Shown piece by piece: positions 59,806 to 64,000 of a stretch of 64,000 nt of DNA. The position numbers and the translations under genes are program-made. A model generated the notes under the pieces. It had not been told where the DNA came from, did not search any database, and saw only the letters and a list, made by a program, of their open reading frames with translations. Numbering within the stretch: position 1 is the stretch's first letter; every line of letters starts with the position of its first letter. This DNA comes from a virus. Where the stretch lies: the IMG/VR virus record IMGVR_UViG_3300025101_000019, positions 109,351-173,350 of that record; one strand, given 5' to 3'.

Positions 59806-61617
59806 TTAGCTTTCCCTATTTTCCATGAACGAAACTACAATATAACGAGTACCTTTAGTGGTTGCACGCGCCCCATGCTTATGAGTTATATTGCCAGGAT
59901 GTAATGTTGCGTAACCAATTGGATTTTTTACTAACTTCTTTTGTCTTCTGAACCAAGTACCACCACCTTCGTATTCATCTAAATCTGATAGTTGTACTAA
60001 ACAAGTAATATCTGCCCTATCGTGATGTATTCCCAAGTGTCCTTGTGCAGTTGGTATATATTTTGCTAAAAAGTTTTCGGAACTCATACTATCCCATCCT
60101 TTACCTTCTAACGCCCATAAATATATTGCAACTTGCATAACATAGTCTTTTAATACATCATTATATATCTCATCCATTCCAATTTCTGTTATCAACATAT
60201 CAGTTGTTGGATAATTTTCATGTCGGTCAAAAGTCCATTTATTAGAATGTTCGGCTTCTTCTCTAATCATTTTACAAAATTCTTCAGTAAATAAAGGAAA
60301 TTGAAAACAACTATCAAATGGTTCATCTACTATCAAATCCCATTCCTTTGTACGAGCTGAATATGATATGAATTTTTTTGTCCACTCATCTTTGTTGTCC
60401 CAATATGTGTATAGTTCTGGATGAAGTTTTTCAAATCCAAAATCTTCTGGCGGAGTAAATCCTCTTGCCTCATCTGGTAACTTATCATTCACCAAATTAT
60501 ACCACTCTACATATCTGTCACTCCAATTTTGTTTTCTTGCAAATTGTTCAGCACTATCTAACAACTTCTTGTGTTCTTTTGCTTGTTGACTTGAAAAAGC
60601 AAATGCTGCGATAAATGTATATCGCATAAGGCCTGTATTTTTATTTTCCCATTTGTAGTTATCAGGGGAACTATCATCAAATGGGGTTTCACCTGACTCA
60701 TGAGTATGTGAACTTATTAATGTACTTTTATTATCGAGTAAGTGTTTTAAATTACCTGTATCAGATGATAGAAGTTTAACTCTACCCATCATCATTTCAA
60801 GAGCAGTTATACAATATGTTTCAGGATACTGAGATGGGTAAATCCACCACTCAGAAGATTTAATTTGTTTGTATAACTCAGATGGATTTAGTGAACCTAA
60901 ATAATGTACATCAAAGTCTCTTTCATAAGTTGGGTAATCTTTTTTTATTCGTTCTAAAGTGTCCCAATCATTAGTATAAGGTGGTGATGCAACCCACAAA
61001 GTTAAATTAGGATTAATCTTTTTTAAATCATCCCAAATATTTAACAGATTCCACAATCCTCTATCAGGTCCAGATGTGTAAATTACTTTGTCTTTAAATT
61101 TTTCTTGTTGGATGGAATCAAAGTCGGATGGGTTTATAGCATTTCCTATAACTTTAACCTTTTCAGAGTTTAAATTATATTTTTTCACTAATTGACCCTT
61201 TTGCCACTCTGATACTGCGATTATATTTGTTAATTTAGGATGGTTTAGATAATCTACTCCATCATTTGGAAGAGTCTCACCATTATACCATGAATAGAAC
61301 TCTAAATTATGTATCCAAAAGTAAGAACTATCGAATGTTATATTTTTATCTTCTAAAACTTTAAAGTAATGAATGTAATTTGATGCAATAACAACATCAA
61401 AGTGTTGATTGTTATCAATACTGTCATAATCAATAAATTTTAGATTATTTGTTTGACTATTTGAAACTTCACCTGTAATTATTACCTCGTGACCTTTCTT
61501 TTCAAACTCTTTAGCTAAGTTAATGACGCAATATTCAGAACCACCCATACCTTTTTGTTTTAGTATGGTGTCATTAATTGGTTCGTTTTGATATCCTACT
61601 GTAAATAAAACTCTCAT
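59806..61617 (-). CDS. Fusion of GT4-like glycosyltransferase and PLOD-type lysyl hydroxylase domain
   Basis: GGSE, YTSGPDRGL, ETYCITALE; C-terminal FPLFT..FC..I.E.E, YPT.D, HHD, YEGGG..F, LHPG..TH.HG..TT.GTRYI.VSF. Confidence 0.85.
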   Translation of the reverse strand: MRVLFTVGYQNEPINDTILKQKGMGGSEYCVINLAKEFEKKGHEVIITGEVSNSQTNNLKFIDYDSIDNNQHFDVVIASNYIHYFKVLEDKNITFDSSYFWIHNLEFYSWYNGETLPNDGVDYLNHPKLTNIIAVSEWQKGQLVKKYNLNSEKVKVIGNAINPSDFDSIQQEKFKDKVIYTSGPDRGLWNLLNIWDDLKKINPNLTLWVASPPYTNDWDTLERIKKDYPTYERDFDVHYLGSLNPSELYKQIKSSEWWIYPSQYPETYCITALEMMMGRVKLLSSDTGNLKHLLDNKSTLISSHTHESGETPFDDSSPDNYKWENKNTGLMRYTFIAAFAFSSQQAKEHKKLLDSAEQFARKQNWSDRYVEWYNLVNDKLPDEARGFTPPEDFGFEKLHPELYTYWDNKDEWTKKFISYSARTKEWDLIVDEPFDSCFQFPLFTEEFCKMIREEAEHSNKWTFDRHENYPTTDMLITEIGMDEIYNDVLKDYVMQVAIYLWALEGKGWDSMSSENFLAKYIPTAQGHLGIHHDRADITCLVQLSDLDEYEGGGTWFRRQKKLVKNPIGYATLHPGNITHKHGARATTKGTRYIVVSFMENRES

Positions 61618-61619
61618 AT

Positions 61620-62906
61620 CTATTCTACTATATAATTAACAAATTCTTCGTTTTTACCATATCTGTCATAATCTCTATAACTGATATCTTTTATTGAATG
61701 GTTTTTTTCATAATCCCACATCCAATCTTCTTTTCCTAATTCCTCAAATCTATCCTTTATTTGAGTATCATAATAATCTCTAATTAACCTTGCTCTTCGG
61801 TTAATATCAACTCTATTGTTGTCAACAGTAGAGTCCCCATTATTATATTGTACATATAACATTTTTTTAACATGAATAAATTTAGTTTCTAAAAATGTTT
61901 TAATAATTAATTCTAAATCGTCTGCGACTGAAATATTTCTATTATGTCCTCTGATTTTATGATACACATCCCTATTCCAAACTCTACAATGGTTTGGCAT
62001 TCCAATATTAAATCTAATTGTTTTTGGATTTATTTCAGGATAATGATGTACTAACCACTCTTTATCATCAATCTCTTGCCAAGTATGACCTGCGTAACCC
62101 CATACAAATCCATTCTCAGAATGACCATACCAATCATCACCTATGTAACCATATATTCTCGGTGAATTATCCTTTTCAACTTCAGTTACATCTGTATAAA
62201 TAAATCCAGCATCTGTATGTTTCTTACTTGCATCAAGAACATCTTCTAAACAAGTTGATATTAACCAATCATCGTGGTCTAATTCAAATAACCACTCACC
62301 ATTACATAACATTGCCGCTCTATGTTTAGCCTCACCAACATTTCCACCTGATATTGGTGATATTCTATATGGTTTTACCCTATAATCTAATTTAGCTATA
62401 TGATTTATCATTTGCCAAGTTAAATGATGGTCTTCTGGTGAATCATCTACCACAACCCACTCCCAATTCTGATATGATTGTTCTAATAGAGATTTGTATG
62501 TTCTAAATATTCTATTTTCAGTTTTATATGTTGGAGTGAATACTGATAATAGTGGTGAATCTTCATTACTATAAACTCTATTTGATTCACATGACCAAAA
62601 AGTTGACTGACAAACTACATCATTTGCTATTACATTATCAGGATAAATTTCTTCTACATTAACTATCTTAGATTTTACAATATCATCGGTTACATTTTGT
62701 AATTCCGATGGAAGTTCACCTATTACATAAATAATATCAGCTTTATGTTTAGATAAATGTGATTTCCAATTTTTAGCATCTCTGTATGAATAAATTACAA
62801 CATTTTCGAATAAATCTTCTTCGTGATAGATGTCGGATGTTAATTCGTATTTACCAAATCGTTTCCAACCATATACTAATGCCGTTGGTAAAGTAGTCTT
62901 TTGCAT
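61620..62906 (-). CDS. Glycosyltransferase family 2
   Basis: SVFTPTY, SLL.Q...WEWVVVDDS, LDHDD, ADD. Confidence 0.88.
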   Translation of the reverse strand: MQKTTLPTALVYGWKRFGKYELTSDIYHEEDLFENVVIYSYRDAKNWKSHLSKHKADIIYVIGELPSELQNVTDDIVKSKIVNVEEIYPDNVIANDVVCQSTFWSCESNRVYSNEDSPLLSVFTPTYKTENRIFRTYKSLLEQSYQNWEWVVVDDSPEDHHLTWQMINHIAKLDYRVKPYRISPISGGNVGEAKHRAAMLCNGEWLFELDHDDWLISTCLEDVLDASKKHTDAGFIYTDVTEVEKDNSPRIYGYIGDDWYGHSENGFVWGYAGHTWQEIDDKEWLVHHYPEINPKTIRFNIGMPNHCRVWNRDVYHKIRGHNRNISVADDLELIIKTFLETKFIHVKKMLYVQYNNGDSTVDNNRVDINRRARLIRDYYDTQIKDRFEELGKEDWMWDYEKNHSIKDISYRDYDRYGKNEEFVNYIVE

Positions 62907-62909
62907 ATC

Positions 62910-63512
62910 TTATCTGTAAGGTTCACCACCAACCCATAAAACAAATGATTTTCGTATACCACTTGTTACGGGAGTTACTCTATGTAAATAAAATGAAGGA
63001 AATAGAATCGCTGCTCCTTTTTGAGAAGGTGCGGTCATTTCTTTTCCAATATTAAATTGTAAGTCACCACCTTCGTATTCATTTGAATCTGAAAGTTGTA
63101 CTGTTACTGATATTTTTCTTTGATTTTGTATTTCTATACCACAATCCATATGCCAATCATACCCACCTTCTTGACTTCCGTAATATTCAGTATATTGAAT
63201 TGATTCATTCATAGTAGATAAATCAAACTTCCACATTTTTTGATTTGCTTCTACAATCATATTGTGAAGTTTTTCATAAACCCATCCCCATTCTTGATTT
63301 TGAGGACACCATTTTACTCTTGATTTTCTATAATCTGATTTTTTTGATGATTCACCTTCACCTGTTGCTGCATCTTCAAATGGAAGAATTTTGGTCATTT
63401 GTTCTATTTGAGTTAATTCATTTGAATCAAATCCATCTGCGAACCAATAATAATCTGTGAAATTTACATCCCATCTATGAGGGTTTCTATCGAATCCAAA
63501 ATTTGCTCTCAT
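62910..63512 (-). CDS. 2OG-Fe(II) oxygenase (PKHD/prolyl-hydroxylase-like)
   Basis: WHMD, RKISVTVQLS, YEGG.L, FPS..HRV.PV..G.R.S.V.W. Confidence 0.9.
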   Translation of the reverse strand: MRANFGFDRNPHRWDVNFTDYYWFADGFDSNELTQIEQMTKILPFEDAATGEGESSKKSDYRKSRVKWCPQNQEWGWVYEKLHNMIVEANQKMWKFDLSTMNESIQYTEYYGSQEGGYDWHMDCGIEIQNQRKISVTVQLSDSNEYEGGDLQFNIGKEMTAPSQKGAAILFPSFYLHRVTPVTSGIRKSFVLWVGGEPYR

Positions 63513-63531
63513 AACTTTTTTAATGTTTGTA

Positions 63532-63539
63532 TATAAATA
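63532..63539 (-). promoter_or_regulatory. Putative late promoter motif TATTTATA (hydroxylase/GT operon)
   Basis: Intergenic between collagen gene and 2OG oxygenase. Confidence 0.62.
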
Positions 63540-63550
63540 TGAAAAATAAT

Positions 63551-64000
63551 TTAGTAAAAGCTACCACTATGTACAGACCTTATGATATAGACATCATCGC
63601 CTGAAGACCATCCATTTGGTTTAAATGTTAGTATACCACCTTGAACTTCAAAATATCCTAAACCACTCATCGAAGCCCCTTGAGCACCAATTACACCTTT
63701 TACACCTTGAACACCCGTAGCACCTTTTTGACCACTTGCACCTGCCGAACCTGTCCCACCTTTGTTTCCTTGAGCACCTTGAGCACCTTGAACACCACCA
63801 CCACCTGTCGTACCTTTAGCACCTTCGTCACCTGCATCACCTTGGTGGCCTGTTTTACCTTTTAAACCTTGAGCACCTGTATTACCTTTATCACCTGCAT
63901 CACCTTGAGGACCTGTTGCACCTTTTTGACCACTTGCACCTGCTGACCCCGTTCCACCCTTGTTTCCTTGAGCACCTTGAGCACCTACGAGACCTTGATT
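63551..64000 (-). CDS. Collagen-like fibre protein, C-terminal part only
   Basis: Manual translation: 36 uninterrupted Gly-X-Y triplets, then a 39-aa tail ending HSGSFY-TAA. Confidence 0.92.
   Translation of the reverse strand, partial: NQGLVGAQGAQGNKGGTGSAGASGQKGATGPQGDAGDKGNTGAQGLKGKTGHQGDAGDEGAKGTTGGGGVQGAQGAQGNKGGTGSAGASGQKGATGVQGVKGVIGAQGASMSGLGYFEVQGGILTFKPNGWSSGDDVYIIRSVHSGSFY

Follow-up and report, generated by a model that had tools for sequence, protein, structure and literature searches.

The systems closest to the one considered here are those of mimivirus and of animals. Mimivirus L230 (lysyl hydroxylase (LH) domain, PDB 6ax6) is a bifunctional collagen lysyl hydroxylase and hydroxylysine glucosyltransferase that acts on the virus's own collagen-like proteins; its LH domain dimerises tail to tail, with a conserved Leu that sits in an aromatic pocket and locks the dimer, and mutation of its Fe triad or of its 2-oxoglutarate (2OG) ligands abolishes activity (PMC5802723). 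In humans, LH3 (PLOD3) and COLGALT1 (PDB 6fxk, 8zgc) convert Lys to hydroxylysine (Hyl), then to Gal-Hyl, and finally to Glc-Gal-Hyl. A general prediction that collagen-like proteins are modified by bacterial dioxygenases was made by Iyer et al. (2010; PMC2938197). According to a 2022 review (PMC8968730), hydroxylation and glycosylation are absent from most collagens of prokaryotes, and phages have collagen only as short stretches within capsid proteins; the review treats the collagens of both as largely unmodified. We found no paper describing a phage lysyl hydroxylase, and the descriptions of such fibre modification that we found concern animals and giant viruses alone. We report here on the final 64 kb (64,000 nucleotides, hereafter the window) of the 173,350-bp IMG/VR record IMGVR_UViG_3300025101_000019, classed as linear and estimated to be 95% complete, in which a collagen-like fibre gene is followed by three tightly packed genes, the last of which encodes a family 4 glycosyltransferase (GT4) fused to an LH domain. 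Judged from its sequence, the locus appears to be a real and well-supported variant, in phages, of the known system for hydroxylation and glycosylation of collagen Lys, with a GT-B partner and a predicted chemistry.

Sequence, profile, fold, and catalytic residues all identify the C-terminal domain of the 603-amino-acid (aa) fusion (59806-61617) as a true lysyl hydroxylase of the PLOD/L230 family, a placement based on E-values, profiles, and fold. Among PDB sequences, human LH3 was the best match (E = 1.2e-30, residues 393-599), L230 matched at 8e-22, and the next 2OG oxygenase appeared at E = 0.13. With a profile of 30 homologs, the matches were 8.5e-36 (LH3) and 8.4e-30 (L230), and no other PDB 2OG oxygenase was found at E ≤ 1; the domain clearly does not group with unrelated 2OG oxygenases. 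Pfam PF25238 matched above its cut-off (1.3e-10). In the AlphaFold model of the fusion, which had a predicted local distance difference test (pLDDT) value of 83.8, the LH domain superposed on that of L230 (6ax7_B) with a template-modelling (TM) score of 0.86 and a root-mean-square deviation of 2.2 Å over 205 columns at 30% identity, and a fold search with the LH model returned LH3 as the top match at 1.4e-18. The Fe ligands His531, Asp533, and His581 and the 2OG ligands Tyr520 and Arg591 showed no variation among 30 homologs with identities as low as 40%, and they aligned with those of LH3 and with His825/Asp827/His877 and Tyr814/Arg887 of L230. An earlier note on this DNA, made from the sequence alone, had noticed the PLOD/LH motif order in this C-terminus; every motif that it quoted was found, with residue-for-residue alignment to human LH3, and the profile search and structure prediction that it proposed both agree with its assignment.

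The N-terminal half of the fusion is a retaining GT4 of the GT-B fold, not the GT-A domain of LH3, as the earlier note had also proposed. In Pfam, PF13439 matched with 36.3 bits (cut-off 28.5) and PF00534 with 31.3 bits (cut-off 26.4), whereas the PLOD GT-A domain PF25342 gave no match in the fusion. Profile matches were to MshA, GlgA, and PimA, the EX7E motif (Glu266...Glu274) was invariant in the homolog alignment, and the model showed the two-Rossmann GT-B fold with TM scores of about 0.65-0.71 to MshA, PimA, BshA, and GlgM. A word-index search with the 603-aa fusion retrieved 413 proteins, mostly of 555-600 aa and almost all from marine metagenomes. When the LH domain was compared with 1.84 billion cluster representatives, 1927 matches were obtained at E ≤ 1e-3 and 87 at E ≤ 1e-30. 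Among 46 long proteins carrying an LH domain, 26 contained a family 25 glycosyltransferase (GT25) domain and 20 a PLOD GT domain, with GT4 in only 8-9; thus, GT4 is a minority partner, and the LH domain usually travels with collagen glycosyltransferases. The GT4-LH form was not found in any cultured phage: the fusion had no full-length tblastn match among 50,697 GenBank phage records, and a 10-kb megablast against GenBank phages gave no match. A search for longer proteins matching the LH region also returned none, a weak piece of evidence from a poorly chosen search.

The window contains 149 codons of collagen-like fibre gene B, in which 36 uninterrupted Gly-X-Y triplets carry Lys at Y in 8, Lys at X in 1, and Pro at Y in none; the first two of these counts are exactly those of the earlier note. 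The triplets are followed by a 38-aa non-collagen C-terminal knob. Contigs that are 99-100% identical (L009, L012, L018, L025) contain two tandem collagen genes, A and B, and in such contigs gene B encodes approximately 1417 aa, with a 290-aa N-terminal domain and 355 triplets, 115 of which have Lys at Y. Gene A, of which the first 876 codons lie at G000:C1:3-2630, begins with a Hint-like N-terminal domain ending in His-Asn|Thr, and GPKG-rich repeats follow. Lys in these collagens is nearly confined to X-Lys-Gly: all 47 Lys residues of gene A precede Gly, and in gene B 115 are at Y and 3 at X. Pro occurs at X and never at Y, so that X-Pro-Gly is absent, and Thr is abundant at Y (112 Thr versus 115 Lys in gene B). 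The pair of genes lies between baseplate/fibre genes and gp13, in a slot directly upstream of gp13 that, from position alone, we take to be that of the neck-whisker/neck-fibre gene wac in the T4 map.

The collagen gene is followed, in the same orientation, by genes for a 200-aa 2OG oxygenase, a 428-aa family 2 glycosyltransferase (GT2), and the fusion, separated by gaps of 3 and 2 bases, and then by those for gp13-, gp14-, and gp15-like proteins and the sheath (Table 1). This order of collagen(s), oxygenase, GT2, fusion, gp13-15, and sheath was kept in all relatives down to 60% identity. A promoter-like motif, TTTTT-N-CATATTTATATAC, stands 17 nt 5' of the oxygenase ATG and recurs before gp13, and close variants precede the sheath and other structural genes. 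Because the motif is common to the unit and the structural genes, the three genes appear to form a single unit that is expressed along with the structural genes. The packed unit just before the neck genes was as the earlier note had described it. What it called a late motif is indeed shared with gp13, sheath, and structural genes, but it is not that of T4: the core on the coding strand is TATTTATA and so is not the T4 late consensus TATAAATA. A T4 late promoter was considered and rejected, as all matches to TATAAATA near these genes were on the opposite strand; the motif is lineage-specific.

Table 1. Positions of the features discussed (numbering of the window unless otherwise indicated)
Feature	Position	Strand	Basis or remark
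Collagen-like fibre gene B, 3' end (149 codons), cut by the record end	63551..64000	-	Pfam Collagen 3e-15
Promoter-like motif TTTTTCATATTTATATAC	63529..63546	-	Upstream of the three-gene unit; also before gp13, sheath, and other structural genes
2OG/Fe(II) oxygenase, 200 aa, prolyl-hydroxylase-like clade	62910..63512	-	Pfam PF13640 2e-13
GT2 (inverting GT-A) glycosyltransferase, 428 aa, with a 115-aa N-terminal extension	61620..62906	-	Pfam PF00535 2e-16; chondroitin synthase 2e-11
GT4 (retaining GT-B) domain, fusion residues 1-385	60463..61617	-	Pfam, profile, fold
PLOD/L230-type lysyl hydroxylase domain, fusion residues 393-603	59809..60441	-	Sequence, profile, fold, catalytic residues
Promoter-like motif, second copy, upstream of gp13; marks the end of the three-gene unit	59786..59803	-	
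gp13-like neck protein	58607..59770	-	phrog_211; PF26809 on the L096 homolog; anchor for locus comparison
Stand-alone GT25, 252 aa, COLGALT1-like	G000:C1:77225-77983 (L102:5226-5984), outside the window	-	PF01755 6.6e-17

To relate the fusion to its neighbouring collagens, we compared 80 loci anchored on gp13, and a search anchored on GT2 added more distant loci without LH. Upstream of gp13 the cassette occurred in three forms: collagen-oxygenase-GT2-GT4-LH, collagen-oxygenase-GT4-LH, and collagen-oxygenase-GT2. Fibres of loci without LH kept a homologous C-terminal knob and had Lys at Y in 0/65, 0/89, 0/39, 0/53, and 4/91 triplets, and the collagen open reading frames (ORFs) of the GT2-anchored loci without LH had none. 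Lys occupied 4.5-40% of Y positions in 19 LH-bearing clusters versus 0-3% in 8 LH-less clusters, with no overlap of the ranges (Mann-Whitney test on 19 versus 8 clusters, p = 2.6e-5, uncorrected for phylogeny), so that the co-occurrence with Lys-rich collagens that the earlier note proposed to test is present in related phages. On the gp13 tree, the presence of LH changed at least 5 times. In related loci, then, Y-position Lys rises and falls with the fusion, and we take the adjacent collagens to be the enzyme's likely substrate, as far as can be judged from these comparisons.

The earlier note had contrasted the GT-B partner with the GT-A domain of LH3 as if the system were free of GT-A, and this did not hold, since the genome encodes outside the window a stand-alone GT25 resembling COLGALT1. 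Its best PDB match was human COLGALT1 (1.2e-13, versus 4.5e-3 for a bacterial GT25), and it was 34-35% identical (E 1e-29 to 1e-37) to the LH-fused GT25 domains of the proteins P0071 and P0122. By sequence, the stand-alone GT25 is closer to COLGALT and LH-fused GT25 than to GT25 of the lipopolysaccharide (LPS) type. GT25 is an inverting family. A separate GT25 was present in 7/7 relatives that were ≥87% complete and carried GT4-LH. In a sister lineage, the 788-aa protein P0071 is a GT4-GT25-LH triple fusion with the same synteny (two giant fibre genes, oxygenase, GT2, fusion, gp13-15, and sheath) and an LH domain 77% identical to that of the present fusion; it differs in the GT25 domain inserted between GT4 and LH, and its 98%-complete genome has GT25 inside the fusion only, with no separate gene. 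This pattern of fusion and fission suggests that GT25 works with the LH enzyme, a suggestion that comes from a single triple-fusion genome. With a GT25 in the genome, GT4 may therefore add a second sugar rather than replace the step that glycosylates hydroxylysine.

Weak matches led to two proteins of cultured phages, both annotated 'hypothetical protein', in which GT25, PLOD-GT, and LH domains are joined in one chain: AOV60406.1 of Synechococcus phage S-CAM9 (614 aa; L178:4639-6483) and gp58 of Roseobacter phage CRP-6 (589 aa; L179:3759-5528). The S-CAM9 protein matched COLGALT1 at 4e-20, the GT domain of LH3 at 6e-33, and L230 at 1e-8. Like the fusion, these proteins are phage-encoded, end in an LH domain, and are found beside Lys-rich Gly-X-Y tail-fibre genes, in which Lys occupied 22/59 (37%) of Y positions in S-CAM9 and 26/98 (27%) in CRP-6. 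They differ from it in having animal-type GT-A domains (COLGALT1 4e-20; LH3 GT and mimivirus R699 approximately 5e-33) and no GT4, and their LH domains share no more than about 25-27% identity with that of the fusion. S-CAM9 and CRP-6 are tractable cultured systems for hydroxylysine glycosylation in phages.

L230, like the fusion, is a viral PLOD-type LH joined to a glycosyltransferase, with a homologous LH domain and the same Fe/2OG ligands. The L230 transferase is of the GT-A type, whereas here it is a retaining GT-B (GT4), and the hosts differ (amoeba versus bacterium), as does the dimer-lock residue, Leu in L230 and Ile in the fusion; the activity of L230 is known, whereas the phage fusion is known here from sequence and model alone. 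With the human system the locus shares LH3 as the best LH match, a COLGALT1-like GT25, and a retaining transferase fused to LH, so that all three enzyme roles have a candidate in the phage. It departs from that system in that the transferase is GT-B with PF25342 absent, GT25 is a separate 252-aa gene, there is neither the accessory domain nor an endoplasmic reticulum context, and the substrate has Pro at X and never at Y. The fusion is thus predicted, by homology, to work like the bifunctional enzymes LH3 and L230 without their architecture.

From homology, fold, conserved catalytic residues, synteny, and the co-variation of the enzyme with Lys at Y, we infer every chemical step, the sugar, the order of transfer, and the virion site of the fibres, and we consider it probable that a late-expressed enzyme system modifies the phage's own collagen-like fibres by hydroxylation and glycosylation. 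The tandem giant collagen genes, lying in the T4 wac slot upstream of gp13, would be translated together with the 603-aa bifunctional enzyme. Its LH domain would use Fe(II) and 2-oxoglutarate to convert Y-position Lys (X-Lys-Gly) of still unfolded chains to hydroxylysine, and its GT4 domain would then add a sugar, either directly to hydroxylysine or, more likely, to a first sugar provided by the separate GT25. Action of LH, followed by transfer of the first sugar by GT25 and of the second by the retaining GT4, would be the most economical model. Such a pathway would mirror the animal sequence of LH, COLGALT, and LH3 glucosyltransferase with GT-B in place of GT-A, and GT4 would stand where S-CAM9-type proteins, LH3, and L230 have the PLOD GT-A domain. 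The oxygenase and GT2 would probably be a second, lysine-independent pair, which may act on the same fibres at X Pro or Y Thr. The most extended version, in which phages run a complete animal-like three-step hydroxylysine glycosylation on neck or tail fibres, with GT-A replaced by GT-B and an independent pair of hydroxylase and GT2 decorating other residues, we put forward tentatively, as an idea less likely than not.

Other explanations would assign some or all of these enzymes to different substrates. In one, which we judge unlikely, LH hydroxylates fibre Lys and GT4 glycosylates something else, for example fibre Ser/Thr or a host surface polymer, leaving hydroxylysine for a purpose such as cross-linking. 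GT4 acceptors are very diverse, the GT4 enzyme GtfA glycosylates serine-rich adhesins, the structures nearest to the present domain are small-molecule or lipid glycosyltransferases, and Thr is as common as Lys at Y of gene B (112 versus 115); to our knowledge, no solved GT4 acts on hydroxylysine. Such a division of labour is hard to reconcile with a GT4 that is always fused to LH and lost together with it, with the GT25 placed between GT4 and LH in the sister lineage, and with the fact that most other partners of the LH domain are collagen glycosyltransferases. Still lower is the probability that the substrate is another phage or host protein with exposed Lys, or a small molecule, and that the place beside the fibre genes is historical. 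The non-overlapping co-variation with Lys at Y in adjacent fibres, the confinement of Lys to X-Lys-Gly in a locus whose enzyme unit shares the structural-gene motif, and the same link in unrelated phages with other LH architectures all argue for the fibres, whereas a substrate elsewhere would agree with bacterial homologs of the whole fusion that have no nearby collagen gene, with at least three further PF13640 genes in the genome, and with the many 2OG oxygenases of unassigned role that marine phages carry (PMC2938197).

The names given to homologs by the Joint Genome Institute (JGI), 'glycosyltransferase involved in cell wall biosynthesis', would fit a third explanation, that the three genes remodel the host envelope (LPS or capsule) during infection and are unrelated to the virion. 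GT2 and GT4 enzymes commonly build polysaccharides, and the NCBIfam near-matches were polysaccharide enzymes, all far below cut-off. Envelope remodelling would leave unexplained why the LH domain is PLOD-specific and associated with Lys at Y, why every relative keeps the genes between those for fibre and neck, and why they share the structural-gene motif; we regard it as very improbable. Modification of the phage's own fibres remains the explanation that we prefer.

Several observations weigh against it. The window carries just 149 codons of a fibre gene, and the full gene B is deduced from near-identical contigs. Two LH-bearing clusters are low in Lys at Y (4.5% and 5.9%). On the oxygenase tree, which is the cassette's own, the presence of LH changed only twice; taken with the count on the gp13 tree, the association within close lineages therefore comes from 2-5 independent events, and a paired sign test on the oxygenase tree, with 1-2 independent pairs, gave no significance and had no power. 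Nor does the fusion always adjoin a collagen: its bacterial GT4-LH homologs stand alone in chromosomes, and no Gly-X-Y ORF was present within 10 kb of them. GT25 lies 95 kb from the fusion, among early-type genes. In the LH domain, the dimer-lock Leu873 of L230 is replaced by an invariant Ile577, and Tyr831 of the pocket by Ile537, which is non-aromatic. A complex prediction with two copies of the LH domain gave a score of 0.05 and a mark of 0.42, and says nothing on dimerisation.

In the small oxygenase, His121, Asp123, His177, and Arg187/Lys188 were invariant. Its closest sequences were PKHD-type hydroxylases (3e-8), and its model was nearest to Pseudomonas putida prolyl 4-hydroxylase (P4H), PHD2, and an algal P4H, with TM scores of 0.6-0.7 and 14-19% identity, a likeness at the level of fold only. 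For PiuC, nothing on function was found in the literature. The oxygenase was present in every cassette, and GT2 was kept in loci without LH and was missing from some loci with it; homologs of GT2 also adjoin Lys-free collagens in other phage lineages. Both genes are therefore linked to collagen but lie outside the lysine pathway. The earlier note had counted them as members of a collagen-modification system, and the link to collagen stands, but not a part in the lysine pathway, as both stay beside Lys-free collagens. By their distribution, the oxygenase and GT2 probably form a separate, lysine-independent modification pair; an action of the oxygenase on X-position Pro and of GT2 on Y-position Thr is our guess.

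These phages belong to a lineage common in marine metagenomes, with fibres that contain more than 1000 residues of Gly-X-Y and have Lys in up to a third of Y positions, in contrast to the picture of phage collagens in the 2022 review. If the predicted chemistry is correct, hydroxylysine glycosylation would extend to viruses of bacteria, and the locus would illustrate the natural replacement of one glycosyltransferase fold by another within one pathway. It would also offer compact, soluble phage enzymes, with which bacterial cells might be made to produce modified collagen, and the sugar-coated fibres would be a candidate factor in adsorption, protease protection, and host range of abundant marine phages. 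If the three-step version were true as well, the 'metazoan' collagen toolkit would be widespread and modular in bacterial viruses, and its roots may be there.

The record has a G+C content of approximately 33%, and its minus strand holds nearly all genes. It encodes T4-type gp23, gp13, gp14, and gp15 and a sheath protein, for which the closest cultured phages were Microcystis phage Mel-JY01 (54%) and Flavobacterium phage immuto (52%). The T4-type genes and these distances therefore place it as a distant T4-like marine myovirus without a close cultured relative. Both ends of the record fall inside collagen repeats on one strand (window position 64000 and G000:C1:1), and it lacks the end of fibre gene A and approximately 1270 codons of gene B, which can be read in near-identical contigs, L009 and L025 among them. 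Most related contigs likewise begin within collagen repeats, so the repeats break assemblies. The possibility that the collagen ORF at the start of the record (G000:C1:3-2630) and the piece in the window are one gene split by the assembly was rejected, since the near-identical contigs show two tandem genes.

The Hint/intein-like domain of gene A comprises approximately 150 aa at G000:C1:2180-2630 (minus strand; locus L005), outside the window. It has Gly at the position expected for the first Cys and a Cys-rich insert (SCGCGDCKCG), and it ends in ...LLIHN|T just before the first Gly-X-Y. No match to it was found in Pfam or PHROG. These sequence features suggest a prodomain that removes itself by C-terminal cleavage. 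The knob at the end of gene B (63551-63667) belongs to a type of approximately 40 aa with the pattern G-Y-F-x-W/V ... T/K-F ... Y-I/F-V/I-E ... S-G-S-x-Y, which is conserved at the ends of fibre genes in L068, L074, L076, L081, and L084, whether these contain Lys or not. It may serve trimerisation or registration, in the manner of the foldon of T4 fibritin.

Bacterial GT4-LH homologs with 40-46% identity occur in L097, L098, and L100 (G+C content approximately 51%), one of them from a Chromatiales symbiont of Bugula. Homologs of GT2 (35-41% identity) are also found on the IMG/VR GVMAG contigs L134 and L137, which are labelled as giant-virus metagenome-assembled genomes. Outside the fibre locus, three more PF13640 2OG oxygenase genes lie at 8267-8581 and 28564-28839 of the window and at G000:C1:103281-103571. 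Directly upstream of the stand-alone GT25 gene is a gene for a SET-domain protein, followed by genes for a methyltransferase, an adenosine 5'-phosphosulfate (APS)-kinase-like protein, cytidylyltransferases, and ThyA.

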